In this document: positions 1 to 58,239 of the stretch, piece after piece
Layout: each line of letters begins with the position of its first letter
Numbering within the stretch: position 1 is the first letter of the stretch
Source of the DNA: Basidiobolus meristosporus CBS 931.73
Lineage: Eukaryota; Fungi; Basidiobolomycota
DNA: 64,000 nucleotides
Direction of reading: 5' to 3'
Assembly (NCBI GenBank): GCA_002104905.1
Contig: MCFE01000011.1
Coordinates: 62,001-126,000 of the forward strand
The notes under the pieces: generated by a model
Databases searched by the model: none
The model's input: the letters and a program-made list of their open reading frames with translations, nothing else
What the model was told of the DNA's origin: nothing
Made by a program: the position numbers and the translations under genes

Positions 1-142
1 GTGACGAGTGGCCTAACATAAGACTTCCACTTGACTCCTCGATGCAAAGAGGTGGAACAAAGGCGCTAGTAGGTTGTGGAATCTCGCCACGTCTCAGAAT
101 GCTTGGATTCCATTCTGTAAGATAGCGTTGTCCAATCAGATT

Positions 143-16801: not shown

Positions 16802-18059
16802 ATATGAGCTCAGAAAAATCCAACCGCCACGCCTCTATCCAATCAACCACCACGGGGATACATCACGAGTGCATTGGGTGAATGTTCAGGTAGAATCTTT
16901 CCATTTGGCTTGGAAAATTGACTTCATAGCATACGTGGGAAACAATCTCTCATTTGTACTTCTACAAATGAATTCCATCTTGACACAAATGAGGTCAAAT
17001 TAACCAATTTCTCGACATGAATAAAGCATTGTAAATCTCCAAATGATATTGCATCTACCTGCCATTGTACTCGGTCACATCATGGTTGGCCATGCTGAGG
17101 TCGGTACATGATATCAACCATCACCTATGAGGACATTGGTACACATCCCGTCCCCAGACCCCAGATAGTGCACCATTAGCCTATCAGTGAGAAAATTACA
17201 ACATCTCCGATACGTTGATGCTACATCCAGCCGTTCCGTTAGACTTGAGGCCTGGATCCCTGCGATGTCGCTGAGGATCTCCAAAGCAGTCCTAGCACCA
17301 AGATCAAGCGTTCTTTTTCAACTCTGCCACTTCTATAGTGTTGCCTGAATCTATTCACCGCCAGCAACCGTATGCATACTGAAATGATGCTCATATGAGA
17401 AGCGGTGGCGTAGAGTTAGGTTTCCAAACCCGCCTATAAGGGAGCCCGCCCACTATGCATGCAGGAATCCACATCATGCTCTAGATTCAGTATGTCTCGC
17501 ATCTCATGACCAGATTAGTGCTGATCCATAGCCAATGTCTTTCATTTGGCTTGTTGGCGATTTTCGGCTAGTCATGGGATACTTTTGTATATCAACCGCT
17601 CTATTGACTAATTCATAGGCTGCAGAATATTGGGGGCATTGTTGGATGAGCTAATGCATTAAACACTTAGTTAGCTGTTCTGTTGCTTGCGCAAAGCAAG
17701 ACTAATACATCCTATGAAATCGATTTCTATCAACCAGACACATGTATTTGTTATGTGCTTGGAATTGAGGAGGGCCAATTGGTTAGGTGGTATATTTAAT
17801 AAGCCAACGAAATTAGCCATGAATTGCAATCACTAGGGTAGAAAGTATATCTAACATGTGCAGAGGCCAAAAGTACTGCCCTAGAGAAAAGCTTCTAGCA
17901 TCGCTGATTTTGGCCTACTAAAAGAATTGGTAATACATCACATGCAAGCAGCTTTGATTAGATGCCAAAGCTCATGTATCCTAGAGCAACCTGCCCACAC
18001 ATGTAACTCTTCCGCAGGCTAATTCACTTGGATTGGTTGCAAATTTTGTAATTACCTCT

Positions 18060-19150
18060 AGATACTCATTTAACTTAGTCACTTAGATAATAGTCTACAA
18101 ATCTTAGAGAATTCTGCTCAAATTCCTTGTTGGTACTAACTTGGGATTTTCATGTTCTGGGTACCTGATTTTTTGGTGAGAATATTCCAAGTTATCCAAA
18201 CTGTTGTAAGTCTTGGAAATATTGGAAGTGATTGGGAGTACAAGTAGATTATGTGGTTTTCACTTAATGATGTATTGAATGTAAGAGTGGTATTTATACC
18301 TTTACATGGTCTTGTCATCATAAACATGTAGAATAGGCTCAGAAAGGTCCCAAGAGAATGTGTGCAAAGTTTGGGGCTGTTGGGACAACTTTGAGAATTC
18401 TCATGTTTTGGGTACTGGATGTTTTGGTAAGAAAATATTCCAAGTAAGTCCCAATAAGGAATTTGGCCAGAGTTCCCTAAGATTCTTGGGTAATGATCAA
18501 AGTGACTAAGTTAGGTGAATATTTAGTTCCAGCATGAAAAGTTGGATTTCTACCTTATTGCTTACATCCCTGAGTATCTTGAAATAATACAATAGGGGCT
18601 TTTCAACATAAGCCCAAGTCTTTGGAAAGCTTTCTAAACCATGTTGCTTCTTTTGTTGCTTCACAGGCTGCCATCTACTCTGCTGCTGTGGTGGAAAGTG
18701 CTAAGGTTAGTTGCTTTCTTAAGTTCCATGAAATTGCTCCTTTACAGTAACAAAGGTGTATCCTGTGGCAGGTCTTTTGTCATCAAAATTGCATCCCCAA
18801 TCACCATTGGAGTACACCACAAGATCTGTTCTGAATCCTTATTAGTGTGCCTTAAGCAGATATCAGTAATTCCTCTGGAGTATCTAAAAATTGGCTTAAC
18901 TGCTATAATATAATCCAATCAATAGTTCTAATTATGCTGGCTGGCAACTCCTAATGAATATGAGATATTTTAACATGTTTCAAGCATGATATACATCCAA
19001 CTGCCAACCAAAGATTGAAAAGGAATTTTGGGCTTTTAAGTGGCATTAAGTTCTCTTGTTTGGTTGAGTATTGACCAAGTTACAGCTTATCCCCATTAGT
19101 GTAGCTACTGTTTACAGTCTTCCATTTGTTACTTCTCCTGTATATCTTGA
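18060..19150 (-). mobile_element. Copia family A: LTR fragments plus degenerate RT/RNaseH fragment
   Basis: LTR copy from ~18202 (tgttgtaagtcttgg...); 18530-19150 is collinear with the RT/RNaseH region at ~54340-54960. Confidence 0.8.
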
Positions 19151-19154
19151 ATAT

Positions 19155-21030
19155 TTTGTAAAAATTTGCTATTCCACCTAAATATTCTCCTAGCTTAGTC
19201 ACTTAGATCACTACCTACAGATTCTATAGAATACTGACCAAATTCCTTGTTAGGATTTAGTAACAATATTTTCACCTAAATATTAGGTATCCAGAACATG
19301 AATATTCTCAAACCTGCCTAAACGGCCCCAAACTTTGCACACATGTTCTTGGGACCTTCCTGAAACTATTTGACAGGTTTGTTATACCAAGACCATGTAA
19401 AAGTATAACACTACTTTTACATTCAATAAATCATGAGGTGAAAACCACAGAATCTATTTATTCTCCCAATCACATCCAATATCTCCAAGACTCAGACAAC
19501 ATACTATGAGCCCCAAGCTGGCACTCTCTGCAATATCTGCCACTGCTATTACTGTAAATATTTCCCCTGCTGAAAAGTTGGATGGATCTAACTACCAAGT
19601 GTGGAGGTGAAGATGAAGATGCTGCTACAAGAAAGTGGCCTTTGGGATATTGTCATAGGAGAGAATACCCTCCAAAAGATGTGGGAGAGGAAGCCTTAAA
19701 GTACCAGAAGACAGAACAAAGTGACTTTAACTGTATTGCCTTAATGTCAAAGACAAATTGCCAATTCAATGCTCAGGAGTAAAAACAGCAAAGAATGCCT
19801 GGAAGGCATTAGAAGACACATACCAGTCATGTTCAGCTGCTAAGAAGATGTATCTTGGACAATAGTTCTTCACTACAGAGATGCTGCCAGGAGGAGAAAT
19901 GAACAATCTTATTAGCAGAATTACCCTGCAGGGGGATGAGATAGAATCTGTAGGCATGCCAATTACTGATGAGGATGTCATAGTTACCATCCTGAATAGC
20001 CTGATTGACAAGCTTTAGGGCCTTGTATCAGCCCTAGAGTCCAGAACTGCAGATTTGACCTGAAATTACATATATAGAAGGCTTCTGGATGAAGAACTGA
20101 GAAAATCAAGCACAAATAAGAAGGAAGAAGAAGATGCCTTAATAAGCAATGCTAACCAACAAAGGAGATACCAAGTGTTGTAAGAGTCTTGGAGATATTG
20201 GAAGTGATTGGGAGGACAAGTAGATTATGTGGTTTTCACTTGATGATTTATTGAATGTAAAAGTAGTATTTATACTTTTACCTGGTCTTGGCATAAAAAA
20301 CACGTAGAATAGGTTAAGAAAGTCCCAAGAACATGTGTGCAAAGTTTGGGGCTGTTTGGACAACTTTGAGAATTTTCATGTTCTGGGTACCTGGTATTTT
20401 GGTGAAAATATTCTAAGTAAATCCCAACAAGGAATTTGGTCAGTATTCTGTAGGATCTGAAGGTAATGATCTAAGTGACTAAGTTAGGTGAATATTTAGG
20501 TGAAATACAAATTTTTACAACACCAAGACCATTTAAAGGCAATAGAAACATGTTTTGCAATTACTGCAAAAGGAAAGGACACATATCAGTCTGGTACCTC
20601 AAAATGACATAGTCAGCAGAAGAAGCCTGGATATGGAAATGCTGCAACAACTGAAGATAGACTATTCATATCTTCACTAAATATGACCATAAACAAGGAT
20701 TCTCAGGTGTGGTATATTGACTCTGGAGCATCTCCACATTTTACACACCAAAAAGAACTTTTTATGCAATATCAGGGAATTTCAATTAATAAGGTCTTCA
20801 CAAGTGACAATGGAACACTTGATGCAGTTGGAGAAGGAGCTATACAAGTGAGCCTCAGAAGCAGTGAAGGAAGCCACACATTTACCTTCAAAGAAGTACC
20901 CTATGTACCAGAAATAGCTGAGAACATACCATCAATAAGCAAGTCCACTGCAAAAGGACTTGGTTTCAGCTTTGAGAGTTCTGGATGCAGGATCACTGAT
21001 CAAAATGAGAGATTCTGTATGTCCTACTAT
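19155..21030 (+). mobile_element. Copia family A, 5' part (LTR ~19155-19501, gag, protease), truncated and degenerate
   Basis: LTR ending ...ccaagactcagacaaca, gag start atgagccccaagctg, protease WYIDSGASPH in ORF 20683-21075; many stops. Confidence 0.85.
20176..20522 (-). repeat. Solo LTR of copia family A (347 bp) with 5-bp TSD CCAAG, inserted in gag of its own family
   Basis: TGTTG...CAACA termini; CCAAG at 20171-20175 and 20523-20527. Confidence 0.92.
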
Positions 21031-21099
21031 AATTACTGCAGTCTAAAAGTATGCATTTTACACTTTTTTGCTTAAATTTTGATTGATATCTGGTCAGTT

Positions 21100-21800
21100 T
21101 CTTGGCATATGCAGTGCACCCAAGTATCCTTAGATGTTCTGCACTTGGCCTGCATCCAAACTATGCTCTAAAGGAAGTAGAATCATCAAGTATTCTGCTA
21201 TAACACCTATCTTTGTGATATATAGCTGCAGCACCTGATGTTCTTTGCAAATATTCAGGAGGTATTCATGACAGAAGTGGCAACAACCAAGCATACGTTT
21301 GTAAGATGTATATGCTACCAGCAGTACATGGTATATGGCAACTTTGCAAGTATCACACTAAAAAGCCATAAAGTTGAGGTGATAGAAGTGTGTCAATTGT
21401 GGCAGGTGTGCGCATTTGTAGAGGTTAGTAAGCAGGAGGACATAGTTTTTTTTGATTTGAACTATATGTGGAATACCCAAGGTAGTAGTGGGTAAGCAAA
21501 TAAAGAAAGGTGATTCTACAATGGAATATATGAATTGCACAAGGGGAGGTAGAAAAAGGAAATACCACTTGGTAAATTGGTATGGTAGCATTATACAGAA
21601 CCAGTGGCAGGCTGTCATACTGCTGAGACAAAAGCCATCAGAGTCTTGCTGTGAGGCTGTCAAAATACCGTCAAGTTTCTTGCCATATAAGGCACTTGGA
21701 AGTCCTGGCAAACTGGATCCACTTAAAATAGTGATAGAGCTCTGAAAGACCGCAATAATAACATGCAAATATCTTCACAGCACCAATCAAAAATTGTCAA
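21100..21800 (+). repeat. 3' segment of the CACTA-like family, inverted relative to other copies
   Basis: Reverse complement of ~39300-39900 and ~48340-48750. Confidence 0.7.
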
Positions 21801-21802
21801 GT

Positions 21803-22498
21803 TGTTGTATCCAAGAGAAAGTGTAATAAAACTCTTGAATGGTTTAACTGAACCAAAGGGACAATTAAGTGCAGAATCTTAGAATTGTCAGAGAGTGGCG
21901 GAAATATTAGCAGAAAGATTCTGATCTAATATTGGTCTTGGATATAGCTGGGTTGGCTATAAAGACAATGATATTTGTTTGCTAGGCAGGCTAGGCTTGG
22001 TGTTCTTTGGAGTGCTAGATATACTAGGCTTGAATAGAAACTAGAACAGAATTGTTGGATTCTTATTTTTGCTGAGACAGAATCTTAATTTCATTGAGAC
22101 ACACACTAAACCAAAAGGTTCAGTAACTTTATTTATACTTTTCTGATCAAGTTGAATTAGTAAGCGCCAAGGGACTGGATTGATTGAAATCAATTTGGGT
22201 GTTCATAGGTGCATAAGATAAATGAAAATTACATCATCAATCAACTGATGTCTTGGCAACTGCACAGTGGTTGGATAGATCTCAGATGACTAATCACCTG
22301 GGAAGGCTTGGCAGATAGGTTGATAATGTAATGACCATTTGAAAATAGGTCAGGTGTGATAGCTAAAAATAGATTCTGAGGTGGGATAAAATAAACTGTA
22401 ACTGGGATTTGTAATGTTTGGGTTAGGGAAAATCAGTTAGGGTACTAGATTTTCAAACAGAGTAAAATTGGCCAAGTCTTGAATGTTGATGCACAACA
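21803..22498 (-). repeat. Solo LTR (696 bp) of the chromoviral gypsy family with 5-bp TSD CAAGT
   Basis: TGTTG...CAACA ends; CAAGT at 21798-21802 and 22499-22503; reverse-complement match to 35600-36295. Confidence 0.85.
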
Positions 22499-22979
22499 CA
22501 AGTTTTATCCCTTTATTTGGCTGTAAAATTTGCAAAACACTGTCATAATGTGGTGGTGTATAGGTCCAAGGGAGAGATACGTCCAACACTTCTCAAGTGT
22601 CTTGTGTGTGGGGTGTTCACTGGGTGCGATAACCTCTGGCAAAAGCTTGCTAGGAATACTTGGGTTCTGTCTCTAATCTAATGTGAAGGGGAATAAAGCC
22701 ACAAGCTTGTCAAGGGAAAACTATTGAGCTACAATCCCCAACTTAGTTGGCGTCTTAACAAAAGTATGTGCTGGGTTCAGCATCCTTTGAGATGACAATG
22801 TACTAAAGATTTCAAAGTCAAAACAACTATAAACTCCACCAGCAGGGACTTGATGAGAATGCAGCTGTGGTCAATAGTTACAAAGACAGAAAAGTATCTT
22901 TGCCTGTACAAGAACAAACTTGGGAAAGAATCAAATATAATAAACAATAACTACTCTGAGAATTCCTCACAAGTAGTGC

Positions 22980-23620
22980 CTCCAAGGTCAGTTGGCTGTC
23001 AGCGCAGTTTCCTGGGAGTGTCCTGTGGTCTGGGGTTGGAAGTTCAGGTAGCAGCAGGTAGCAGTGATCACACTAATCAACAAGTTGGTATATTGATAAA
23101 AGGGATGATGATTTATTGTAGAGGGATAGCCTCCCTTATATACTTTTCTCACTAGCTAAGTGATTACCAATCATGGTGTTCCAGAAGGTTCCGGATATCA
23201 ATTGAAATCTTAATGACATCAGAATGACCTAAGAATGTTCTAAGTAGGTGCCGGAAGGTTCTAAGAGGCACAGCACATCCAACCAATCAGGAATCAGTAT
23301 TCTGAAACCTGTGTAACATGGGGATACCATATATGGTATGGAAATGCTAGGGATGGTGACACGGGTTGATCATGTGTCACAAGTACTGGCGCAGGTACTT
23401 GCCTAATATAGAAGCACTTATAGCTAGTAATCTACATAAAGTGAGGGGTAACTTATGCAATAAGGTAAGCAGGTGTGATAGTCAACCAGCTTATGGGATA
23501 GTACTGATTGGGTAAGACAAATGGGATAAAACTAAAATAAATGTAGTAGAGATATAGGGAAGTAGAAAATGAGGGAATGAGCACATCTGTCAGTGGGTGT
23601 CACTGTCACCCCACTACAAC
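22980..23620. repeat. Interspersed repeat segment; inverted copy at ~44500-44880
   Basis: ataaaagggatgatgatttattg...cctcccttatata matches the reverse complement of ~44720-44860. Confidence 0.65.
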
Positions 23621-23989
23621 AATCTTGTTATAAGATTATCAGGAGGGTCACTAATTTCAGGCTGCTGATATTATGATGGTCTCTAAACAGGATCTTGACA
23701 GTTGATCTGGATTGGATCCACCTGCAGGACCAAATTACTTTTCATAGGGTATGCTTAGTTGTCACCACTTCTGCCATGAATACCTCCTCAATACCTGCAA
23801 AGAACTTTTTGGTATTTAGCCAATATATTCCTTCTCCCTGCTGGATTCTAATTCCCCATATAGGTGTGCTCTGGCTCTTGTTTGTGTGAGTTTTGTATTG
23901 AGTGATGTAGAAGTTGGCTTGTGACCAAGAGAAATCTGGCATACCTTAGTAGAGTTTTCCTAATAGAAATTAGTTGCTTGTTGCACCCA

Positions 23990-25371
23990 ACACAACTTTG
24001 TATTACCTAACTGATTACGCACATGTTAGGGCTGCTTAGCTTCCTGATGCCATCAGCACAGGTGTCTCCATGTGCACATCCATCCTCAGTATTTTCCAAC
24101 TCTTCCTGGCTGTCCTCCATGTGCTAGCTCATCACATCCATGACAGACTTGAAGGTAACACTCTTGATAAGAATGGGATATTGCAGTACCTACAACTTGA
24201 CTTGTCTTCATATCTCCCCACACATCTGCTCCATATGAAACTCCCAAAAGGTGAAGCCAGGCCCAATATTCCCCACACACCAAGCAAGATGGAGTAGAGA
24301 ATGGATACAGTAGCAACAGAGATTAATGTGTTCAGCTTTATGTTTGTAGTATAGCTGCTCAAATCCTATTACAAACTCCTTGCACAACAGCTATAGATAT
24401 GTTAAGTTGACATTGGTGATTTGCTTCTGGATAAATATTCCTACAATGTCCACATAAGACTCCCAATACTGCTAATGTACTCTTGGTAGGAATGGCTTCA
24501 GAAGGCCACTTTAATTGATACATATCCTGTTCATCCAGTCTTTGCATTGGTATTGTTGCATATGCATATGAATATTGATTGAAGCCTGTGAGAAGTACTA
24601 AGGGTAGCAGATACTGTGTAATATCTTGCCAATTATTTTAAATTTCTCTAGTATCTCAAAGGGCTCATTTATCTTGAAATGTCACATGCACAACTTGGTC
24701 ATCAGTATAGGGATATTTTTGAGTAGCAAATGCATTGCTCCCAGTGGAAAGCATTTGCTCCTACAGATACCCTCCATCTTAAGTATATCTGGTTTCCATT
24801 GATTCCATATTCTGGCCAATTGCTTATAGCTTTCCAACTTTGCTGCAATTGCAAGCTGACTTCTGTACATTCTCTCTGTAGGAAGATGTTATACTTAGTA
24901 TTGGTGTTTGCGTAATAACAATGTGTGTGCAATATGGAGTAAATACCCTGAATCTCACACATTTGACTGCTATGCCATTCATTGTTCCCAGAAAAGCCGG
25001 ATATCTTGCTGATGGCTGGGGTATCTTCAATGCAGATAATAATATGCACTTTTACATGACAGCCATTTGCTGTTATCCTGCTGGAAAGCCTACAAAACTC
25101 ATCCAGCAATGGATACCGGTAGCTATCCAGGTTTGATGGTGATTTAGCCCCAGATACCAGTGAGACTACCATCAGATTTTTTGCTCTGATACTGTATGAT
25201 AGGTGTCAGATTCAGGTTGATGAGAATCAGTGGCCAGCAGGATTTGCTGGCAGAGTACTTGCTTAATGAAAATCCATCAAGGGCTAAGGCAAAGGCCTGG
25301 TCATACATGCTTTCAAAGTAGCCCTTGCTGCTTAGCAGTTTGTAATATTTGCCCACAAATCTAATCAAACC
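23990..25371 (-). pseudogene. CACTA/EnSpm tnp2-family transposase pseudogene, C-terminal part (copy 1)
   Basis: Fragments ALALDGFSLSKYSASKSCWPLILINLNL, KSPSNLDSYRYPLLDEF and IICIEDTPAISKISGFSG, plus a DUF4218-like tail; typical of fungal Transposase_21 proteins. Confidence 0.8.
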
Positions 25372-25410
25372 CAATGTTTACTTGACATTATCGATCTCTG
25401 TTCTACTAAA

Positions 25411-27705
25411 ATGGGTAAACGACTCCTTAAAAAGCGTCTCCTCTCTCCCGTCACCAATCCCCACAAATTAGAACATCGTTATTGCCAACTTGACGACTTT
25501 AGTTCTCTCTTCGAACCTTCCGTAAAAACTTTCGATCGTCTCTTAACTAATATCGCCGACCTTGAACGACTTCATCGCCAACTTTTATTAGAAGTTCTAA
25601 CTTTACCCGAACTTTCTCGACTCTATACCTCTTACAAAGCTATCCTTGATCTTTGCAATCTTCTTATTCCTGCCTTCTCCTCCCCTAATACTACTTCTTC
25701 CTCTCATGATCTTCCCAACCTACAAACTCTTTCGCTTGATGATCCTCCCAATATACGCTCCTCTTCATCTGATGAGCCTCCCAATATACGTTCCTCTTCA
25801 TCCAATGAGCCTCCCAATATACGCTCCTCTTCATCCAATGAGCTTCCCAATATACGCTCCTCTTCATCCAATGAGCCTCCCAATATACGCTCCTCTTTGT
25901 TTGATGAGCCTCCCAATAGACGTTCCTTTTCATCCAATGAGCCTCCCAATAGACACTCCTTTTCATCCGATGAGCCTCCCAATAGACACTCCTCTTCATC
26001 TGATGATCTTCCTAACCCACAAACTTTACCTCCCAAATCTTCTTTACAACATATCCTCTTGTCTCAACACAAAATTTCCCTTCTTAATAAATTCGTTAAC
26101 GACATCTCTTGTATCTTTGTTATCGATAATATCCCCACCACTGGCACCCTTGACCCCTCCATCTTTCGCAAAGGTATCTTCCCCGATCTCGACTCCCTCT
26201 CCAACTCTCGAACTTCTGAACTTGACAAATTAGAAGATATTGCCTTTGCTCTCTCTTCTCACGCCCTCTCTTATCTTTCTTCTACCTCACGCAAATCTGT
26301 CGACAAAAAACTTATCCCCATTAAAGTCGACTATTCTCCCCGCTCTGGATACTATCTTTCTGTCACCAATTCTTTTGCCACCAAACTTAAATCTTCCTTA
26401 ACCAAATCTTTCATCTCTAACGATAACATTACCTTTAAATCTGACAAATTAAACACCAAAATCTCCTCCAACAGCCTAACCCACATTAGCGATCATATTC
26501 TCTCCCTAGATGACCAAATTAACAAACAACTTAAATCTCTCTTCCTTAGCAGCCTCAAACACTTATCTTCTTACAAAAATATCTTTCGTCGCATCGAACT
26601 CTTTGTCGCCGAATTTGACGTTATTAAATCTAACTACAAAATCAGTCGCCTCTACAACTTCTGCCGCCCTGTCGTCAAACTATCCAACAAAAGTTATTTT
26701 AAAGCCACTGATCTCCGTCACCCCCTCATCGAGCGCCTCCAAACTAATCTAGAATATGTCCCTAACGATATCACCATCGGTACCAACAACCATGACGGTA
26801 TTATCTCATACTCCATGAACTCCTGTGGCAAAACCAGCCTCCTCAAAGCCTGCGGCCTCTCCATCATCCTCGCCCAAATGGGCTCCTTCGTCCCCGCTTC
26901 TTCTTTCGAATTCTCTCCCTACAAATCTCTCATGACTCGCATCCTTAGCGAAGATAATATTCTCAAAGGCCAATCCTCCTTCGTCGCCGAAATGTCTGAC
27001 CTTAGAAATATCCTCAAACGTGCCGACCCCTACACTTTAGTTCTTGCCGACGAAATTACCCACGGCACAGAACACATCTCTGGATCTGCCATCTTTGCCT
27101 CCAGCGTCATGACTCTCGCCAAACAAAATATCAGCTTTATGTTCACCACCCATTTACACAACATCTACAAATTTATCAAAGATATTCCCAACGTTAAAGT
27201 TTTTCATCTCTCTGTTAATTTCGAACATATTAATTCTAAAAACGTTATTATCTTCGAACGCAAAATTAAAGAAGGCCCCTGTGACTCCATTTATGGCCTC
27301 GAAGTCTGCGAATTCCTTAACATGGACTCTAACTTCCTCCAAAAAGCTTTCCAAATCCGTGCCGACATTTTGTCCCGTGAAGATAAAACTTGTCCCACTA
27401 TTGCCAATGGTCTTCTAAACCAATACTCCAAATATAGCCGTTACAACAAAGATAAACTTGTTTACAAATGTCAAATCTGCAACTACGTCCCTACCCAAAC
27501 TACCGACCTCCCTATCAATGTCCACCATATCCAACATCAACACACTTCTGACAACAATGGTATGATCGACCATCGCCACAAAAATTCTAAATCTAATCTC
27601 GTTGCTCTTTGCAAAAACTGTCACGTTAAAACCCACCAAAATAAACCCCAGATTAACGGCTATGCTAGCACCACCGAAGGTCTTATCTTAAACTTTGAAC
27701 AATAA
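25411..27705 (+). CDS. mutS7: MutS7-type MutS-HNH fusion (giant-virus/Epsilonproteobacteria/octocoral mtMutS type), N-terminally truncated, intronless, 764-aa ORF
   Basis: Domain III start (LLDIIDLCSTK)MGKRLLKKRLLSP...IADLERLHR; domain V DLRHPLIERL...EYVPNDI, Walker A-like SMNSCGKT, IILAQMGSFVPA, SSFVAEMSDLRNIL, Walker B LVLADEITHGTE, FTTHLH, GPCDSIYGLEV; HNH CQIC...VHHIQHQ...NGMIDHRHKNSKSNLVALCKNCHVKTH. Confidence 0.9.
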   Translation: MGKRLLKKRLLSPVTNPHKLEHRYCQLDDFSSLFEPSVKTFDRLLTNIADLERLHRQLLLEVLTLPELSRLYTSYKAILDLCNLLIPAFSSPNTTSSSHDLPNLQTLSLDDPPNIRSSSSDEPPNIRSSSSNEPPNIRSSSSNELPNIRSSSSNEPPNIRSSLFDEPPNRRSFSSNEPPNRHSFSSDEPPNRHSSSSDDLPNPQTLPPKSSLQHILLSQHKISLLNKFVNDISCIFVIDNIPTTGTLDPSIFRKGIFPDLDSLSNSRTSELDKLEDIAFALSSHALSYLSSTSRKSVDKKLIPIKVDYSPRSGYYLSVTNSFATKLKSSLTKSFISNDNITFKSDKLNTKISSNSLTHISDHILSLDDQINKQLKSLFLSSLKHLSSYKNIFRRIELFVAEFDVIKSNYKISRLYNFCRPVVKLSNKSYFKATDLRHPLIERLQTNLEYVPNDITIGTNNHDGIISYSMNSCGKTSLLKACGLSIILAQMGSFVPASSFEFSPYKSLMTRILSEDNILKGQSSFVAEMSDLRNILKRADPYTLVLADEITHGTEHISGSAIFASSVMTLAKQNISFMFTTHLHNIYKFIKDIPNVKVFHLSVNFEHINSKNVIIFERKIKEGPCDSIYGLEVCEFLNMDSNFLQKAFQIRADILSREDKTCPTIANGLLNQYSKYSRYNKDKLVYKCQICNYVPTQTTDLPINVHHIQHQHTSDNNGMIDHRHKNSKSNLVALCKNCHVKTHQNKPQINGYASTTEGLILNFEQ
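25744..26007 (+). repeat. In-frame 33-bp coding minisatellite, 8 units (PPNIRSSSS[D/N]E)
   Basis: Unit cctcccaatatacgctcctcttcatcc(a/g)atgag repeated 8 times with graded divergence. Confidence 0.95.
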
Positions 27706-27707
27706 CC

Positions 27708-28660
27708 ATTCTAACCCAGATAATGAGTGCAATACTGTATAGCTTTGCAATATTTGTTGGACTGCAGTAGCTTCTTTTGATGGGGTATTACTGGAATATA
27801 TTTGGGGTGTGAACAATGTTTTCCTTCAATGGTGGTGAATTCCAGAAAATTTGGACACATTGTAGTGGTAGCATTTTTAGATGTAAATGCCATGCAACTG
27901 TTAACACATGCTGGAATGAGGAAAGTCTCTGCATCATATGTTGCCAGCCACATACAGCTGACCACTTGTACCATGAACATGGTAAGTTGCATCCCGGAAT
28001 GATTTTGGGAAGAAGTAGTAATAAGTGCTCAAAGACCCTGTTGATGATATTAGTGGAAGCTCACCACTTCTCTAGCCACAACATTTCATCATTCACCAGC
28101 AGATGAATTACTGGGCTCACTTGGCACTGTAAAGTATCCTTGCAATTGTTTCATCTGGTGTTGCCTCATTGCATATTGGGACTTGACTGGGCTCATACAT
28201 GGTACTGTTGTTATGGGAGATAGGCTTACAATCCATCCAGTGAGCCTTCTTTGTCAGAGCTATCTCTCTGCATACCATATTCAGAAGGTTAAGGTCATCC
28301 TAAAGGTGTCACAAACTCACCTGACTCAGCTTGTGCAAGGTAACAAAGGCAGCAAGGTGCCAATATAGAGGTATCAACTGGCCAGCAAGATAATGTTAGT
28401 GAGTAGTGACTCATGAATGGTCAACTATGATTTGTGTGGCAAAACCCTGGCTCTGACCCTTGTAATACTTCCTATGCTGTCTGCATGCTTCATGGCTTCA
28501 AGGCTTGTTAAAATAGCCACATGGTCTTTTTTCTCTTCTCTTACAACATTGAATCAAAGTAGTTGTATTCATGGGGCAAACAGTTTGACCTTCAACAATG
28601 TAATACTATTATATCATGTTTTTATCATTACCTATGTGAGTTTAAGACAGTCATGTATTT
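27708..28660 (-). pseudogene. CACTA/EnSpm tnp2 transposase pseudogene, N-terminal part (copy 1)
   Basis: ACVNSCMAFTSKNATTTMCPNF...HPKYIPVIPHQKKLLQSNKYCKAIQY resembles the tnp2 N-terminal Cys region; collinear with ~37700-38620. Confidence 0.78.
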
Positions 28661-28794
28661 GAGACATTGCACCTACATGAATGTAAGATTCAATGATGAC
28701 CCACCATAGTAAGCATTAAAGATAAAATTGTGGCACCGCATAAACATGTATATGTAACACTATTTCCTCTTTGTTTTGACTTACTTCCATATAT

Positions 28795-31415
28795 ATGGCA
28801 CCAAAAAATAAAGCAAAGTTGTCTGGTCTCAAACCAAACCCCACCACTGATGGCAGCAGAAGAACAGTTGGGCAACAGCTTACTTTGACATTCAGTGCAA
28901 CAAGCAGGGCTACATCCAATAAGGCCATGTTGACAGTGTGCCCACTGAAGGTAACAATGCTGACACCTTTGGCTCACAGTCAAGTAGGCAATTGAGAACC
29001 ACTGCAGAGCCGCAAGTTGACCATTATTCTCTGGCAGATGAGAGTGCAGCAAGCACAGTACCTTATATTGAAGACCAGCAAGTGGCCATCATAGCATTGC
29101 CACCACCCATATTAGCAATTATGTTGTCAGCTCATACCAAAGCATTAATGAATCAATTAGGTGCAATGGCTGATAGCAATGGCCCTGAAAAATCAGGAAA
29201 AGTTCACAAAAAGGATCAGTGGATAATAGGTATAGAGCAATAACTATTCCTGGCAGAGAAAGCAGCATCTTTGCTGCAAAGAAGGAACTCAAGTAGCTCA
29301 ATGTCATAGCCAAGAATTGAGCCATTTCCCAATGGAACAGCAGAGAAACCCTATACAGTCTTGGAAGAACTACAACAGTGCCCAAAGATAAAGCTCACAG
29401 AAAAACCTATCACAGCATGGGAGGGAGACAATTTGGTCTTAATACCAAAGCCTAAAATCAAAAGACATTGAAGATCTGTGAAGCTGTTGAGTGCAATAAT
29501 GAAGAGTGGGCTAATATTCACAAGGCTCTCAGAAGTCTAACATGACATCACCTTAAGGCCAGCATACCATGGGACCCTCAGGAACTCAAGGCCAAGCAGA
29601 ATGCACTTGACTTGTTCCATGAGCATTATCCTGAATTCAAATATACAAACAGATTTTGGGCCAGAATTGGTATGCTAAGAAAGTGTCTTAAGAATAGCAG
29701 AAACTAATGAAGGTGGAAGAACAAGCTTGCCATGGCTAAAAACCAGTAGCTTCCTCAAGAGCCCATTACAAGGAGGGCTAAAAAGCACTTAGTCCAACAA
29801 GCATTGAAGGACCTGGCAGTATTAAAATTTTATGATCTGCCGCTTGAATGTTTAAGTTAGATCAGTTTTAGTCAAATCAATTAGTATATGCTTAGGTTAT
29901 CAGTATAGCAGTATTATCTATGAAATCAGTAGCATTAGTCAGCAAATGAATCAGCAGATCCTTATCAGACAGAAATAGATATATTAAGCAGGATCTTTTT
30001 GGGTGATGATGATGCAATCAAATGAGTCATCAGCTACAACCTACATTAGGAAACTCAATTAGTCAGCAATTGATCTGGCAACATGTATTTAAGGAGCTGC
30101 TGGAACCTCAATAAAAATCAGTTCAAGTTTTAGTGAATACAATACTAGCTAAACTCCATATTCCTCTACAACTCTTATACCAAGACTTGTAACAAAAAAC
30201 CAGCAGCTTTCACAAGAGCCTGCCACAACTACAGATACAGCTCAAGACAAGCAGAAATGAAATATCAGGTTGTCAGAAGAGTGCCAGCAAGGGAGAAGCA
30301 GGTCAAAACAGATGCATCAGAGCAGAATTTATTATGGACACAATGTAGTTCATTACAAGAAGCACTCAGACAAAGTAGCAGTGAAAGACCAGGCAGTGAT
30401 AAAGGGAAAGATGTCTACCCAAGCCTGAGACAGGGAAGCAAGCAAGAAAAGCTGCAGTTCTTGCTGTTAATGCTGTAAGCCCAGAACAGACTCAACCCCA
30501 TCATAGCCAAGAAGAATTACTAACAAGAAAGCAGCTGTTTTTACAAGAGTTTGAGGTGCAGCCAGTTGGGCTACACTCCAGCAAGGTCAATGAGTTGGCA
30601 GAAAAAGACAATTTGTCTATCACAGCATCCACATCCTCCATTGATGATGGAGTGGAGATACCACCAATGGACAAGGCTCTAATGTCAAGAGCTCAAAGAC
30701 TATCACAATGCCTTCACTGGAATTTTGGAGCGTTAATAGGCACACCAAGTGGTTGTAGCACTTCTTCAAGAGCTGTGCTCAGGAAAATGTAATTGAATAT
30801 TGCAAGGATTTATTGCAAAGATTAGCAGATGTGGCGCCAGAACTTGCAGAGGCAGCTGAAAACCAGGATGTGTGAGAACCAGTGAATCAACAGTGGCACA
30901 AAGCCATTGGGTTCCTGCCAAAGGCATGGAACCAGAGCATTACAGCAGAACTATTTATTGAATGGTGGAATTTAATGGAGCTAATTGTTGGGTGTGGGGT
31001 TGGGCTCAATGTTCATGTAGGTAATAGGGACTTGTATAGGCCAACACAATTGGCAATTGCGGTACAACTAAAGTTTCAATTAAGATAAATCAACTTGTGG
31101 ACATGAAAAGAAAAATGGTTGAGTCAGGAAGTGAGGAGTGTGAAAAAGTGGTGATAGCCAATCAGTGCATACATACATAGGAGGCGATAGAGTGTTCAGG
31201 ATCAGAAAGTGAGCAAAATGGCAGCAAACAATCAACAGCCACTTATACAATGTTGTGATAAGAAATTTTGGTGAGGTTTTTTATGGAATCTGGGGTACAT
31301 TTATTTTTCCACAGTCTCTGAACAGTGTCCTGATGGGATAATTACCTCTTAGTCACAGTACTTTAAATCTGTGATGGCCTTTTGACAAGATCACAACAAT
31401 AATTTCTCATAGGGA
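28795..31415 (+). mobile_element. Degenerate second ORF region plus downstream spacer of the CACTA-like family
   Basis: Homologous to ~41760-43610 (same strand) and ~43615-44520 (inverted); broken basic/low-complexity ORF pieces. Confidence 0.6.
29828..30194 (+). repeat. Young solo LTR (~367 bp) with 4-bp TSD AAAA
   Basis: (T[T/G]TTATGA)...TTGTAACA termini; almost identical to 41068-41435; the uninterrupted homologous site near 42370 supports the TSD. Confidence 0.85.
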
Positions 31416-31419
31416 TTGG

Positions 31420-34400
31420 TCACTAGGATGTCATGCTGTCGGATCCTCCAGAAATACATATCCCTCTAGACCTGTCCTGGTGGTTTTCCAAGATCCTTTG
31501 CTCTTTATGCTCAAGGAGCCAATCCCATAAAGAATCCTACTGAGTTTCTACACAAGCTTAGTCATGTTTTATCTGGACACCAGGTAGACTTTGACACCCA
31601 TTGGGCTACGCTTCTGCCTCTCTGTCTTACTACATAAGATGCTGACTGGGCTGAAGTAGACCTTCTTTCCAATAGTACATGGAAAATTGCCCAAAACCTC
31701 TTTGGTAGCCATTTTGAAGATCCCCACAAGAAAGCACATCTGAACTGCAACTTATGGAAAACTAAAATGCAAAAATGTGAATCTGTGCAACACTTCTCTG
31801 ATAGATTCCAGAGACAAATGAGATCAGCTGGAGTTAGTGATGATAATTAATTGCTTACTGCTCATTTTCTTTCAAACTTTTCACACCATCTATAGAGCAA
31901 TATTGCTATTGTCAAAGCATGCAACCCTGCATGTAACTATGACAAAATCTCAGAGATATGTACACTTGCAATCACCATGACTGTGGCTACTAGCCAGGCT
32001 TTGGGCAATTCCACTCTAGATTCAGCAACAACAGGAAAAGAGAGCAGTCATGTGACCAAGAAGAAGTCAAGCATTGCAAGCTTCATGGAAGATGCTATCA
32101 CTCCACTAGTGAATGCAAAGGCATTACTAAGCAGTCAAACAAGTCAGGAAACACATCAGAGAAGCAGCAAAGCACCAAAACTGATAATCCATAGGCTGAT
32201 GACAAATGCCTTAAATGAGGAAAGATGGGACATATATCACCTCCCTGTCCTGAGAAGAGCTCTACAACATTTGCAAAATTACTCAGATTCTAGACAATCA
32301 TTCAACCAATGATATGACAGGGTATAAGGAAGCATATGAAGAATGTACAGTTTGAGATTATCATACCCTATTTGAATTTCTGGCCAAAATTGGAACTGTT
32401 CAAGAAAAGAAGCAACCAATTGCGCAGCTAAAAACTATAGAGGTGCCACTCAAGCTCAATGGCCAATCATACATGGCACTACTAGTTACAGGATCAACCA
32501 ACTCTATTGTATCACCAAATGTAGTCAAAGCACTCAAATTGGAAATAAAAAAGCAGCCATGAAAAATCATGCTTGCGCTAAGGACCTCTTGGGCCCAAGA
32601 ATTGGTATCACCAACCCAATCAGCATACATTTGGTTCAATGACTGTAATCCATCAAACAGAAGTTATTGACATTCCAGATGGACCTCAGGTAGTCATTGG
32701 TCTAGACACCTTCACTAAACTTGGCTTTCACTTTGGCAGACTTCCAGTTTCATATCCTGGAATCACTAAATCTCAGCCACCCATAATAGATCAGATTCCA
32801 AGGATTATCTTACCCCATCTGGAAGCCAAGGAGTCAGCCTAAACTTTTCAAGCTTATTTTCAATCAGTCAAATAGGAAATTCAGCAAGCCATAAAAAGAA
32901 ACCAAGCTATTCCCAGGAACAGTTTCTGCACTATTCCAGATTCCATTGTTGTGCTAGAAACTTCACATGGTGAGTCCACATGGGGAGGCTCCACCCAACT
33001 CTGCATTCTTGCCAACACTTAGTTGATGAAATAGTTCAAAAGTGGGCTGACAACGGAATTATCACCCAAGCCCATGTCAACACAGCATTCAACAACCTTT
33101 TGATGCTTGCACTCAGAAAGATGCTGATGGAAATCTAACTCTGAAGAGACTCTTTTTGGACCATAGACCTCTTGACAAACTTCTCCAAGATGCTAAATTT
33201 TCAATTCCAAGAATCCAGGATATCTTTTCCTCATTATTAAGTGCAAAAGTATTCTCCAAATTGGACTTGAAGGATGCAAATCACCAGTTCTAGATCCATC
33301 CCAATCATAAGCTTAAGACCACCTTTACTTGGAATAATATGCAATGGATGTTTTAGGGAGCTCCCTTTAGCCTAGAGATACTTACCAGCAAGTTCCACAG
33401 AGTCATGACTATAATACCCAAGAATGAACCATACACCTTGTATTTGTCAATGATGTCATCATATTTTCCACAATCAATGATGATCACACAACTCATGTCA
33501 TTGATGTAATCAATAGACTGACAGCTGCTGAAATGATTCTAGTGCTGCAAGGTACAGCTTTGCTTGTCTCAAAATCATTCTTCTTGGATTCATAGTCACA
33601 CTGGATGGCCACCAGCTTGACCAAATCAAGCTGGACAATATTCCTGAATGGCCATAACCTGCTAGCATTATACAACTCCAACATTATCTTGTGGTATCCA
33701 AGTATTTCAGGGAACACATTCCTATCATGTCCTCATTGAACGCCCCTTAGGATGCATTACATCATAGTTCTAATCTCTCCTCAGCCTGGCACAAGGCTCA
33801 CAACCAAGCATTTGAGTTACTCTGCCAATTGCTCCTACAAGCACCCACCCTATCCTACCCAGACTTTACTAAGACCTTTGTTGTTGCTACATATGCATCC
33901 AATATTGGGTTAGGGGCTATCCTATACCAGGATGAAGACCAAAAACTGCCTCATTGGATCTCTTTTCAAGCCAAATCAGTACAACTTGCTGAGCAAAGCT
34001 ACTCTGCCACTAAGAAGGAGCTTCTTGCCATAGTCTTTACCTTGAGGAAGTTTCATCAGTTCTTATGGGGTAACCCTTTTACCTTGTAAACTGACAACCA
34101 AGCCCTTACCTATAATCACACTCAAAAGACTCTGACTCCAATGCTGACCAACTGGCTTGATACTCTGCTTGAGTATGGGTATGCAGTTATTCATTGCCCA
34201 GGAATCCCAAATATCCTACCTGACCACCTTTCAAGACTCTGCCCAACTTCACCTTGGGAGGGAAGTGTGATTACTGACATAATCAGTAAGCTCGCTACAA
34301 CTTCCAAAATAATTCCTCAACTGGATTCAGCAATCTGGAAAATCCCACATGCCAATGAAAGGAAAACCTTGATACAGAGGAATCATTAACTTGGCCATTT

Positions 34401-36295
34401 TGGAGTTGACACACTTATGAAGAAGCAACACTCTGATCAGTATCACTGGCCAAATATCAAAGCTGACTGCCTAGAATTAGTCAAGTCTTGCAGAGAATGT
34501 CAACTCTACAATATCAGCTGCCATGGATCTCACCCTTTGAGTCTCATCCATGCAAGCCTTCCTGTGGATCATATTGCAATTGATCTAGCTGGACCTTTCA
34601 CCACTGGTAATGATGGTAATCACTACCTCTTTGTAATTGTGGATGTCTGCACATATTTTGTCTTCCTCAAAGCTATCCCAGACAAGTATGCTGCCACTAT
34701 TTTACAAGCACTATTCAAGCTCTTTAGCCATTTTGGATTTCCTAAGGTCATTCAATTGGGTAATGGAATAGAATTTGTGAATCATGTGATCAAGGCCCTT
34801 TGCCACCATAGTGCCATTGATCACCATCTGATAACTCCATATCATCTCAAAGCTAATGGACTTGCTGAAAGACATGTTAAGACCTCAGAGAACATCATCA
34901 GAGGATTTATCAAAGATATCAAGAAGAATTAGGACAAGTACATTTGCACTGTGCAGTATGCTATCAACACCAAAATTGCTGCACTGAATAGATTGTTGCC
35001 ATTTTCTTTGATGTTTGGAAGAAGATACAACCAGTTCAGAGACAACCAAAATTTAGGGTTAGTAAGTTTAAATACAGACAAGCTAAAGAACCAACTTGAG
35101 TACCTTACCAACATTGTCTACCCAGCTATCAGTGCCAGAAGTAAGGCTCACAGCAAAAGATGACTTCAACATACATCTCAAGACACAGGAACATCAGCTA
35201 CTCAGATGGGTCATATGTCAAGACACCAGATCCAGTCCAACAATCTAAATTTGACCCCAAATATGAAGGCCCATTTGAAATTGTCAAACATACCATTGGA
35301 GGATCTTATATACTTCAGTTCAATATTAGAGTACTGCTCCCCAAGCACTTTCATTTCTGTCACTTAAGCTTATATCTCAAGGCCTGGTTACTCCAGAATC
35401 CTATGAAGTTAAAGCTATTGTTGACCATTATGGAGAAGAACCAAATTATGTTTATTTGGTCAAGTGGAGAGATTATGTTGCCAAACAAAACACCTGGGAA
35501 CCTTACACCAGCATTGATGAAGTAGCCATCATTGATCAGTATTGGAGCTGCGGAGGAGCCCAGAAGGTATCAGAAAGCTCCTCTCCTGGGAGGAAGTGAT
35601 ATTGTGCAACAAAATTTAAAACTTAGCCAATTCCATTCTGTGAGAAAATTGAGTACTCTAAATGAATTTCCTTAATCCAAACATAACTAATCCATGTTAT
35701 GGCTTATTTCATCACTTCTCAGAATCTATTTTTAGCTGTCAAACCTGATCAATTTTCATGTGGCCATTATGTCCTCAACTGAACTGCTAAGCTTTACCAA
35801 GTGATTAGACATCTAAGATCTATCTAACCACTTAGCAGTTGCCAAAACATCAGCAGATTAATGATGCAAATTTTCACTTATCTTGTGCACCTATCATCAC
35901 CCCAACAGATTTCAATCAGTTCAGTCACTTGGCACTTAATAACTCAACTTGAACAGAGAAGTTTTAATAAAGTCCGCTGAACCTTCTGGGTCAATGTGTG
36001 TCTCAACAAAGTTAAGCTTGTGTCTCATCAGAATTAAGAACTCAACAATTACATTTAGTCTCTACCCAAGCCTAGCATATCTGGTACTCCCAAGAGCACC
36101 AAGCCTAGCCTGAATAGCAAACCAACTCAGTTATCTTTGTAGCCAAGCCCAGCTATGTACAAGACCAATATCAGAACAGAACCTCTCAGCTAACATTTCT
36201 GCCACTCTGACTGTTCTAAGATTCTGCACATAGTAGTCACTTGGGTTCAGTTAGACCATTCAAGAGTCTTATTGCTCTTTCTCTTGAATACAGCA
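31420..36295 (+). mobile_element. Degenerate Ty3/gypsy chromovirus (gag, PR, RT, RNaseH, IN, chromodomain, 3' LTR 35600-36295); 5' LTR absent
   Basis: RNaseH LSYPDFTKTFVVATYASNIGLGAIL...YSATKKELLAIVF; integrase HIAIDLAGP...ANGLAER; GPY/F-like KFDPKYEGPFEI; chromodomain-like ...YLVKWRDY...NTWEP near 35400-35510; PPT gggaggaagtga before the LTR. Confidence 0.9.
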
Positions 36296-39130
36296 ATTGT
36301 AGTACCTGCATGTTGACTCATTTTCATATCTCCCCACACATTCAATTCATATAAAACTCCCAAAAGGTGAAGGAAGGCCCATATTCCCCACACGCCAAGC
36401 AAGATGCCCCTAAGGAAAAAACCAAGAAAAGGCCAGCAAAGTACCATCTTAACATTAGCTGAACTCCAAGTTTCTTGAAATTGGCAACACTCAGTAACTC
36501 TGTTGTTGACTGATGGGCAAGTAAGCAAACTATTTCTCCCGGAGCAGACTATGCCAACTAGTATCCATGCTAAATTTTGTAGTTAGCTACACTTCACATC
36601 CAGCAAAAACTGCACTTGGAATTTTGAACCAAAAACACAAGCTGAACACCAGCAAAATATTGTCAGAATACCAGCAGAGTACCAACTGAAAATCACATGA
36701 ATGCCAAGTCTGAGACTCTCGTAGGAATGGAGTAAAGAGTAAATACAGTATTGGTAGAGCTATACTCATTTAGCTTTATGCTTGTAATATAGCCACTCAA
36801 ATCTTGTCACAAATTCCTTGCATAAACACTGTAGATGTGTTAAGGTGATGTTGGTGATCTTCTTCTGGATAAATATTCCTACAATGCTAACATATTACTC
36901 CCAATGCTTCCCGTGTACACTTGGCAGAAGTAGCACCAGGAGGCCACTTGAATAAATCCATATCCAGTTCATCCAGTGTTTGCAGGTGTATTTTTGCATT
37001 TGTGTATGTATATTGATTGGAGCCTGTGAGAAGTACCTGAAGCAGCAGACACTCTGTAAGATCTTGCCAATTCTATCAAATTTCTCCAGTATCTCAAAGG
37101 GCTCATTTAGCTTAAAATACTGCATGTAAACTTGGTAACTAGTATAGGGATATTATTGAAAGAAAGTGCAGTTTGCCCAGTGGAAAGCAGATGCTCCAAC
37201 TGATACGCTCTATCTTAAGTATCTCTGGTTTGTGATTAATTCCATGTTATGGCCAATGACTTATAGCTTTCTAGCTTTGCTGTAACTGCATGCAGACTTT
37301 GGTGGGCTCACTCTGTGGGAAGGTGATCCTGTTGGTGTTTGTGTTTGAATAAAAATAATATGTGTGAGTTATGGAGTAAATCTCTTGATTTCATACATCT
37401 GATAGCAACACTGTCCATAGAGCCCAGATAAGCCAGCTTTCTTGCTGATGGCTGGGGTTTATCCAATGCAGATATTAATAAGCACCTTGATAAGATGGTT
37501 GCTTAGTAGTATCCAACAGGAAACCATACACAATTCATCCATCAATGGATTCAGGTAGCTATCCAGGTTGGATAGTGATCTAGGACCAGATAAAAATGAG
37601 ACTATCAACAGATTTCTGCTTTGATATGTAGGATAGGCAGCAGATTCTGGTTGATAAGAATCAGTGGCCAGCAGGATATGCTGGTAGAGTACTTGGTTTA
37701 TACTGAGTGCAGTACTTTAGATCTTTACAATACTTGTTGGAATGCATGAGCTTCTTTAGATGGGGTATTAATGGAATATATCAGGAGGGTAAACAATGTG
37801 GTCCTCCTATGATGGTGGATTTCTGACAAGTTGGATACCTTGCAATGGTTGCATTTTCTGATGTGAATGCCATGCAACTGTTAACACATGCTGGTATTAA
37901 GATGGTCTCTGGATCATATGTTGCCAGCCACACGACAGCTGTCAATCTTTAACCTGTACATGGTAATTGCATCCCAGAATGATCTTGGCAAGAAGTAGTA
38001 GTAAAACCTTCAAGCCCCCATTAGTGATATAGTTGGAAACATGCCACTTCTCTAGCCATAACATCACATCATTCACCAGTAGGTGAATTAATGGGCTCAC
38101 CTGGGTCCATAAAATTTCCTTGGCATTTTTTCCTCAGGTGTTGTCACATCATATATTGAGAACTTGCCAGACTCATGCAGGGTACTGTTATTTGGGGGGA
38201 TATGCTCACTATCTATCATTAAGCCTTCTTTTTCAGAGCTATCATTTGGCATGCCATATTCAGATGGCTGTGGTAAGCTCAAAGGTGTCACAAGCTCACC
38301 TGAGTCAGTTTGCACAAGGTGGCAAGTACAGCTAGGTGCCATTATAGCAGTGTCATATGAACAGCAGATTATTGTTGGTATAGCAGTGACTGATTAATGG
38401 CTAAATACAAGTTGTGTAGCAAAAACTGGTTATGATCCAGGTAATACTTAATATGTGGTCTGCATGCTTCATGGCTAAGAGGCTTATTTCAATAGCCAGA
38501 TTATCTTTTTTTTCTACTGGTATTGATTCAAAGTAGTCTTCTCCCTGGGGCAACCAGTTTGACACTCAACAACATAACACTATAATACCACTTTTTTGTC
38601 AATGCTTATGGTTTATGACACCCATGACAGATTATTGCAATGAACCTGTCAAAAGGCCATTACAGGTTCTAAGTTCTGTGACTAAGAAGTAATGCTTCTA
38701 TTAGGACACCATCCAAAGACAGTAAAAAATAATTGCACCCCAGATATCATAAAAAATGTAGTAAAAATATTTCATCACTACAATACAAAAGCATCTGTTG
38801 GTTGGTTCTCTGCCAATTTTCTCACTTTCTGATCTTGGATACCCTATCATCTCCTATGTTTGTGAGCATTGATTAGATATTTTTGCTTTTCACACTCCTT
38901 TTTATCAGACCCAACCATTTCTCTTATTTTTTATGCATACAAATTTATTTATTTCTGTTGAAATTTCAGGTGTACCTCAATTGCCAATTGTAATGACCTA
39001 TACAAGCCTCTATACCCTACACTAACATTAAACCCAACCCTACACCTTATAAGTACTCCATAAGTATTTTGGCTGTAACACTCTCCCCATAAAAAAATAG
39101 TTTGGTCCTGCAGGTGGATCCACTCCAGAT
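36296..39130 (-). pseudogene. CACTA tnp2 pseudogene copy 2 (internally deleted) plus upstream spacer
   Basis: Collinear with 24100-25260 and 27720-28660 without the MutS insert; ~38640-39100 is the reverse complement of ~30950-31410. Confidence 0.75.
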
Positions 39131-41730: not shown

Positions 41731-41759
41731 GATTGAAACTGAGTGTGATATATATAGCC

Positions 41760-44520: not shown

Positions 44521-45094
44521 ATTTTCTACTTCCCTATTACTCTACTACACTTATTTTAGTTTTATCCCATTAGTCTTACTTGATCAGCACTATTCCATAA
44601 GCTGGCTAACTATCATGGCTGCTTACCTTATTGTATAAGTTATCCCTTGCTTTATGTAAGATGACTAACTATAAGTACTTCTATATTTGGCAAGTACATG
44701 ATGAGTAATCATTTATCCAGTGAGAAAATTATATAAGGGAGGCAATCCCTCAGCAATAAATCATCATCCCTTTTATCAATGTACTAACTTGTTGATTAGT
44801 ATGTTCACTGCCACCTGCTGCTACCTGAACTTCCAACCCCAGACCACAGGACTGTTGAAATATTGGACTATTTGGTATCATTCAGCAGCTAAAAATTTAC
44901 TTAACAATTCTAGACTAGTCTTAGTCATTGTAGGACTCATTTACTGCCTTAACTTTGCCACTCTCTCCAGATATATGAACTTATAATTATTCCCCTATAG
45001 TCGGGATCAAATTAGCACTATTACCAAACATTATGTACTAACCCTGAAACTGTTACAGAATGCTCCTGAATATTGAGAAACCCTCCCTACTTAG

Positions 45095-47780: not shown

Positions 47781-47799
47781 AGGGGACTTACTCTATAAC

Positions 47800-50029: not shown

Positions 50030-50339
50030 AGACTTGTTCCATTGGATAGTGCCACATAATGCTGGCCAATTTATAGTGTCAGATCTATCCACCAATCTGT
50101 GGCTCTATCTGGCACAGTAATCCTACCAAGATGCCAGTGATAGGATGCGGTTACTGGTAGTCTTGCTGAATCTGACTGATGTTGCTTAGAGCAGCACTTT
50201 ACTTGCATTGTTTATTTCTCATAATGCCCCATACATATTTCTCTCAGTTAGTGCCTTCTTGTATGAGTATACTGTGCATTAACAATGAAAGTCCAAAGAG
50301 TAACAAGTTGCAGCTCATTCACTGCTGTAAGGGTTTTGC

Positions 50340-53193: not shown

Positions 53194-53797
53194 AAAAACT
53201 GCATTTTTTAATGGGGAACTTCATGAGGATGTGTGTATGGACCAGCCTGATGGGTTTGTTGACCAAGATAACACCCATTTGGTCTGCAAGCTTAAGAAGT
53301 CTCTATATAGACTCAAAAAATTTCCAAGACCCTGGAATTGCAAGATAGATTCTTATTAGGAATCTTTGAGTTTCAACAGGAGTAATGCTGACTATAGTAT
53401 GTACTATAAGCCAGATGGAGCAAGTCCAGTACTATTAGCTCTATATGTGGATGATCTTATTGTAGTCATCAATAACCTTGAAACAATGCAAGAGACTAAA
53501 TACAGCCTATCTAAGGGGGTCAAGATATCCAATCTGGGAAAACTCAGTTACTACTTAGGGATAAAGTTCCCCATAGACAGAAGTACCCAGTCTATCACAC
53601 TAAGCCAGTCCATGCATATTCAAGATATACTAAAGAAGTACTAAATGGATGACTGTTGTTGTAGAAATTTGTAATTCCACCTAAATATTCCCCTAACTTA
53701 GTCACTTAGATCATTACCTTCAAATCCCAGAAGAGACTGACCAAGTCCCTAGTTGAGATTTACTTCGAGTATTTTCACCAAAATACCAGATACCCAG
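53194..53797 (+). mobile_element. Copia A RT fragment and partial LTR in opposite orientation to its neighbours
   Basis: KTAFFNGELHEDVCMDQPDGF...LKKSLYRLKK; LLALYVDDLIV (RT YVDD); LTR start at ~53658. Confidence 0.85.
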
Positions 53798-58237: not shown

Positions 58238-58239
58238 TA

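Follow-up and report, generated by a model that had tools for sequence, protein, structure and literature searches.

A 764-aa reading frame (P0001) with the features of a MutS protein lies on the forward strand of a 64,000-nucleotide stretch of Basidiobolus meristosporus CBS 931.73 (GCA_002104905.1, contig MCFE01000011.1, positions 62,001 to 126,000; hereafter the window), within an island of transposon remains (Table 1). Its translation is free of stops, and such an open frame would arise by chance at the local base composition with a probability of ~7e-15; the uninterrupted frame described in an earlier note, made from the letters alone, is thus real. Pfam searches likewise bore out the MutS core and ATPase motifs described there, with matches to MutS_V (5e-39), MutS_III (5.9e-11), and MutS_IV (1e-4), and the Walker A and B motifs could be matched to those of 46 relatives. 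The Ser residue in Walker A is typical of the clade (46/46 relatives), which rules it out as a mark of inactivation or decay.

The C-terminal HNH domain claimed in the same note stands on its residues, although profile and structure searches fell short of their thresholds. The Pfam match to HNH is weak (E 0.0099, 16.5 bits, below the cut-off of 21.4), and a Foldseek search with a predicted structure of the last 94 aa (pLDDT 89) gave no row at E<=0.001. The HNH reading is nonetheless upheld because nine residues (C, C, H, H, N, C, C, H, and H) are unchanged in 51 of 51 aligned rows; moreover, the top 8 Foldseek rows are, going by their titles, HNH-type nucleases. A 33-bp tandem repeat, overlooked in the earlier note, encodes a Ser-rich insert that falls in domain III. 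The repeat is also found in P0274 and, in a related form, in P0246, and is probably the element labeled 'Mucin-like' in Fig. S2 of Gong et al. (2020; PMC7017919).

Table 1. Features of the MutS7 locus and its surroundings (window coordinates)
Feature	Positions	Strand	Basis or remark
Transposon island poor in CpG, with remains of copia, other LTR, and CACTA-type elements	18001..59500	.	Bordered by host gene regions of intron type
Left flank: downstream part of decayed Tnp2 (CACTA/En-Spm-type) transposase	24705..25353	-	Pfam Transposase_21 7e-07, above cut-off; P0279 residues 241-294
Foreign insert, 2,367 bp	25352..27718	+	5'-truncated viral-type MutS7 plus 7-13 bp past the stop
MutS7 codons in frame ahead of the ATG, HKSNQTQCLLDIIDLCSTK	25352..25410	+	Match to P0002 residues 356-374
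764-aa ORF, MutS III/IV/V + HNH	25411..27705	+	Starts at internal Met of STKMGKR
33-bp x 8.2 tandem repeat, coding for Ser-rich insert	25738..26006	+	
Walker A, YSMNSCGKTS	26809..26838	+	Motif alignment
Walker B, LVLADEITHGT, intact	27037..27069	+	Motif alignment
C-terminal zinc-finger HNH domain	27469..27636	+	Pfam, alignment, model, Foldseek
Right flank: upstream part of the same transposase	27720..27908	-	P0279 residues 165-228

Extent of the insert and its flanks

According to PMC3166940, MutS7 is defined by domains I, III, and V together with HNH. Domains III and V, with Walker A and B, are present in P0001; domain I, which is responsible for mismatch binding, is absent from it and present in the source gene, P0002. 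Since the definition requires domain I, the frame is a fragment derived from MutS7 and no complete member. Indeed, neither MutS_I nor MutS_II gave a Pfam match in P0001, and residues 1-352 of P0002 had no tblastn match in the window at E<=1. The reading frame is already open from 25336, upstream of the ATG at 25411, and homology to P0002 begins ~20 codons upstream of this ATG, at P0002 residue ~356; because in-frame MutS7 codons precede the ATG, the cut lies within the gene. Judged from the alignment, ~355 N-terminal residues, domain I included, are gone from the 764-aa frame, and the ATG is an internal Met of MutS7. The earlier note had described the frame as a gene; that it is a complete one is not borne out, and the absent domain I argues against mismatch-repair activity.

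The left end of the insert is good to ~3 bp, and the right end falls between 27712 and 27719. In a self-comparison of the window, transposon homology runs up to 25351 and resumes from 27720; contigs of run X3 (described below) extend beyond 25356 on the left and 27712 on the right with sequence that does not resemble the flanks. The insert holds 89 CpG in 2,367 bp (o/e 1.15), and CpG o/e is 0.077 in 18001-25351, 0.06 in 27719-59500, and 0.77-0.78 in the host gene regions. Third-position G accounts for 3% in the insert versus 18-27% in four host or transposon frames. CCCA is present at both insert ends, where neither a poly(A) tract nor a target duplication longer than this 4-bp motif was found.

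On the left, a search with the flank returned six matching proteins; on the right, repeat homology extends to ~28655. Both flanks align to P0279 on the same strand and in the same order, with 12 residues missing between them relative to P0279, 12 relative to P0281, and 18 relative to P0278 (the latter two counted by eye). Because the flanks are colinear and ~12 residues are absent between them, a single transposase gene was interrupted, with the loss of ~30-36 bp or more. CCCA was considered as a true target duplication, which is unlikely given the ~12 missing target codons. The fungal transposon island of the earlier note is confirmed, the frame lying inside a CACTA-type transposase.

Physical linkage was assessed in four runs compared over 23500-29500; X1 and X2 represent one sample, possibly the one behind the assembly, and X5 gave 9 records. 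Both X1 and X2 contain an exact 142-bp contig over 25240-25381 at a depth of ~202; 112 of its letters fall in the transposon and 30 in the insert, against a tool bar of 31. A contig joint that links 25351 to 27733 across unknown letters is also present in both runs. Its shorter side has only 24 letters, and a transposon copy without the insert would give such a joint. Among the pieces listed, which leave out 44,114 records, none bridges the right junction. The joining to fungal DNA that the earlier note assumed is therefore backed by the colinear transposase halves and the left-junction contig and left without a bridge on the right; on present sequences, real joining is favored.

Elsewhere in the window, host-type genes occupy positions 1-17,500 and 62,254-63,999 (FAM210, FYRC, NDK, C2, ankyrin/CCCH, and Tcp11), and the borders between host genes and island are very sharp, CpG o/e passing from 0.77 to 0.07 at ~17,500-18,000 and 59,500-60,000. 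A DUF1963 match (8.6e-09) lies in a host gene region at 1218-1691 on the forward strand; DUF1963 is mostly a bacterial family, and this is possibly another transferred gene. A 367-bp duplication (29830-30195 and 41070-41436) with 98.9% identity, where other island copies are mostly 70-90% alike, would represent a recent copy or conversion, and a copia-type duplication of 1,170 bp (51921-53090 and 57063-58232) is 95.6% identical. A sigma-70 promoter scan, whose model is unsuited to a fungus, remained at chance level.

Relatives, sister copies, and age of the insert

The closest relative, P0002, is named Basidiobolus meristosporus and is 99% identical to the window (491/498 and 56/58). It is a 921-aa model with MutS_I that passes over ~230 residues and takes 12 others from a different frame, suggesting a false intron placed over a frameshift. 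Its contig (33,329 bp) appears to be 'Bas_mer MCFE01000822.1' of Gong et al. (2020), given the equal length in bp and the matching domain labels. These authors placed the polymerase of MCFE01000822.1 among the Pithovirus-related 'fundsalphaviruses', and their Fig. S2 draws MutS beside it (PMC7017919). 'MutS' has no match in their main text and is present as a supplementary label (PMC7017919).

The 119 other homologues listed, of 2,032 passing, are 35-55% identical with scores of 329-526 bits; among the matches listed, environmental relatives are ~50% identical and score up to 526 bits. Matches to MutS1 and MSH2/3/6 in the PDB do not exceed 113 bits. A eukaryotic MSH1-6 protein would be closest to MSH and carry no HNH; here, MSH2/3/6 score 91-111 bits versus 329-526, and HNH is present. 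The two closest of 9 IMG/VR loci, L001 and L002 (46 and 49%), have the following neighbors: the N-part of Rpb1 and an SF2 helicase at L001, and PolB, the C-part of Rpb1, XPG, and dUTPase at L002. PolB also adjoins a third locus, L010. These surroundings resemble the POL-RP1c-helicase-RP1n cluster in Fig. S2 of Gong et al. A search with the L002 PolB returned no named viral, Pithovirus, or fungal relative, so that the environmental clade is tied to the fundsalphaviruses by gene order only. The cluster of POL, split RP1, and helicase found beside L001, L002, and L010 is absent at the insert locus, and no polymerase or other viral gene accompanies the insert within the window. A search of the window for other viral remains with 589 ORFs and proteins from related loci gave one match outside the insert, to the host ankyrin/CCCH gene.

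In a quick IQ-TREE analysis of 274 columns from the ATPase region in 64 rows (LG+G4; SH-aLRT only), a support of 100 unites the window frame with P0002 and P0274, and all three fall within a starred clade of 28 rows that also contains L001, L002, and L010. The window frame groups with MutS-HNH proteins of viral contigs, far from the 4 bacterial outgroup rows (3 annotated mutS), and its nearest clade is separate from the branch holding the capsid-bearing bin G001. The tree leaves out ~3/4 of the homologue rows and contains no named MSH, Mimivirus, octocoral, or Campylobacterota sequence; the placement that it gives is relative to viral-contig MutS-HNH and the bacterial rows. Three further MutS relatives (L013:4945-7896, L048:9932-12916, and L014; 32-35% in the best segment to P0002) form their own starred branch, and their surroundings look bacterial on reading, with ribosomal and tRNA-synthetase-like neighbors. 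No relative was found in the genome-contig collection or, with P0002 alone as query, in the viral-contig collection, and in the plasmid and phage collections the rows listed were limited to matches over part of MutS, at 24-30%. A giant-virus MutS7 origin and horizontal acquisition, both proposed in the earlier note, are supported by the environmental relatives (up to 526 bits), the tree clade, the PolB and Rpb1 neighbors, and Fig. S2 of Gong et al.

Four further MutS7 models carry the name B. meristosporus: P0002, P0274, P0245, and P0275, whose contigs measure 33, 51, 31, and 134 kb. Another two MutS7 pieces (P0246 and P0253) are named B. ranarum. P0244, which equals window residues 469-716, is probably the gene model of the window locus itself. 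P0274 is near full length, with 50 amino-acid differences from the window, which fall to 38 non-repeat single-base differences once 11 repeat differences and 1 two-base difference are dropped. Of these, 28 are CpG transitions, as deduced from protein differences and window codons, not P0274 DNA; the CpG type makes up 105 of 1,336 possible non-synonymous transitions, so that the excess in P0274 has p 2.5e-23. The same trend is seen in P0245 (9/11) and P0275 (14/33). Methylation of cytosine (5mC) drives C-to-T loss. Fungal 5mC targets transposons, according to PMC11244446; no Basidiobolus methylome was found in PMC.

By comparison, 7 residues separate the window copy from P0002. Of these, two are probably P0002's own changes, R25C and D703N look like CpG loss in the window copy, and three substitutions (Y296S, L466S, and L746P) are private to the window, the L466S column being Leu in 44 of 45 relatives. 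Residue 571 was rejected as a third site of CpG decay, as the window K is the majority outgroup residue (24/45) and is also found in P0274 and P0275. Both R25C and D703N recur in P0274. A chromosomal donor may be suspected from this but not concluded, because each such site has a probability of ~0.28 of being hit in P0274. Only 4 of 105 CpG hits would create a stop, and a copy that is still young should therefore have kept its frame open. The idea that X1 represents a second isolate with a further-decayed insert was dropped, since its extra alleles (for example at 26185, 26491, and 25568) match P0274; the contigs of X1 probably combine sequence from several copies.

Origin and significance of the insertion

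Probably, viral-type DNA was caught at a double-strand break in a dead transposon and end-joined with a small deletion. The donor would have been a Pithovirus-related 'fundsalphavirus' of the kind known from Basidiobolus, present either as infecting viral DNA or as a young chromosomal copy. A break in an already dead CACTA-type transposase would then have received the 3' two-thirds of MutS7 during a recent repair event, with closure by end-joining, in which a microhomology of 2-4 bp may have helped (the CCCA seen at either end). The insert may by now be methylated along with the island, with C-to-T decay at CpG still ahead of it, as in the sister copies. Its frame would owe its openness to youth and the rarity of stop-making CpG hits, not to selection, and the insert is likely non-functional.

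A route through RNA, in which a reverse-transcribed and 5'-truncated copy of the viral MutS7 mRNA was inserted and was dead on arrival, is very unlikely. The right end only 7-13 bp past the stop codon, the truncated 5' end, and an island full of reverse-transcriptase elements would suit it, but the insert has no poly(A), any duplication is limited to the 4-bp CCCA, and ~12 target codons were lost. Another reading is domestication. MutS2 binds branched DNA and nicks it, and by analogy the host might use a MutS ATPase-HNH protein without domain I in the same manner. The open 764-aa frame with intact Walker A/B and HNH residues, an in-frame ATG close to the left end, and the retained CpGs are what such use might leave behind; however, only 7 amino-acid differences from P0002 represent too little time for selection to show, the sister copies are decaying, the DNA upstream is antisense transposase, and the definition of MutS7 includes domain I, making this reading very improbable. 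We give hardly any credence to transposon-borne cargo (Pack-CACTA-like), whereby the element itself captured and moves the fragment: despite the very high copy number of the CACTA-type family and the several MutS7 loci in the species, the host element has frameshifts and has lost its CpGs, in contrast to the fresh insert, and had thus probably died before the insert arrived; moreover, P0002 and P0274, being full-length, do not share the cut. An assembly chimera or co-sequenced viral contaminant, which the flank-unlike composition, repeat-rich region, and unbridged right junction might suggest, is most improbable because the flanks are consecutive parts of one transposase, both runs of one sample contain an exact contig that spans the left junction, and the copy differs from P0002 and P0274.

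In X3, which comes from organism B in another study, contigs of 1,209 and 2,183 bp match window positions 25356-25786 and 25984-27712 with 32 and 165 differences (92.6% and 90.5% identity). Both are uninterrupted, with MutS-like sequence continuing upstream and sequence unlike the transposon downstream, and 19 of 26 listed differences, a tool-chosen subset, are synonymous. Their depths of 2,718 and 3,274, compared with 10-113 for six other X3 pieces listed, are not equivalent to copy number, and may alternatively reflect a high sequencing effort, the collapse of several copies, or residence in an organelle. It is conceivable, though rather doubtful, that fungi resembling Basidiobolus are still host to a replicating, Pithovirus-related giant virus with MutS7 that goes on seeding the nuclear genome, the window holding its freshest kind of footprint. 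If true, a virus group so far known from fossils alone would have a host that can be cultured, and its isolation would be possible.

As a single locus, the insert is ordinary: it is a viral fossil of a group already published for Basidiobolus meristosporus. Its value is as a clock, in that an almost unmutated piece lies in a CpG-stripped island while sister copies have decayed further, which suggests that DNA of this virus has entered repeatedly and in recent times. The locus also places MutS7 in a Pithovirus-related fungal virus lineage, an association absent from the titles and abstract openings listed in searches of open-access literature.

Comparison with known systems

Endogenous NCLDV elements of Basidiobolus meristosporus were reported by Gong, Zhang & Han (2020; PMC7017919), whose search queries were DNA polymerase plus MCP and A32. 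Unlike those fundsalphavirus elements, the insert locus carries no polymerase or other viral gene and lies inside a DNA transposon. With the MutS7 of Nucleocytoviricota, the insert has in common the order of domains III, V, and C-terminal HNH, a Ser-type Walker A, and relatives on viral contigs; it differs in lacking domain I, in the Ser-rich repeat within domain III, and in that its nearest clade adjoins split Rpb1 and PolB. In PMC10583209, MutS is described as typical of Imitervirales, and MutS7 as mainly found there.

Mycodnaviridae are likewise giant viruses integrated in fungal nuclear genomes. They are defined by capsid, placed near Imitervirales, and assigned mostly to zoosporic hosts (10.1101/2024.01.04.574182; PMC13533422); Basidiobolus, MutS, and Pithovirus have no matches in the main text of either source.

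The mtMutS of octocorals, to which the earlier note drew a parallel, is also of MutS7 type, probably of giant-virus origin, and resident in a eukaryote. According to PMC3166940 and PMC8438181, octocoral mtMutS is 957-1,022 aa long, contains domain I, is conserved across octocorals, and is transcribed. The insert, in contrast, is nuclear, truncated, and of very recent date; it shows no sign of use, and its sister copies are decaying; octocoral-like domestication is thus not supported. A likeness may also be drawn to the giant-virus insertions of Amoebidium. Whereas 5mC and silencing were measured there (PMC11244446) and both are deduced here from CpG loss, the two are cases of repeated viral insertion in which the genome bears a signature of CpG methylation.
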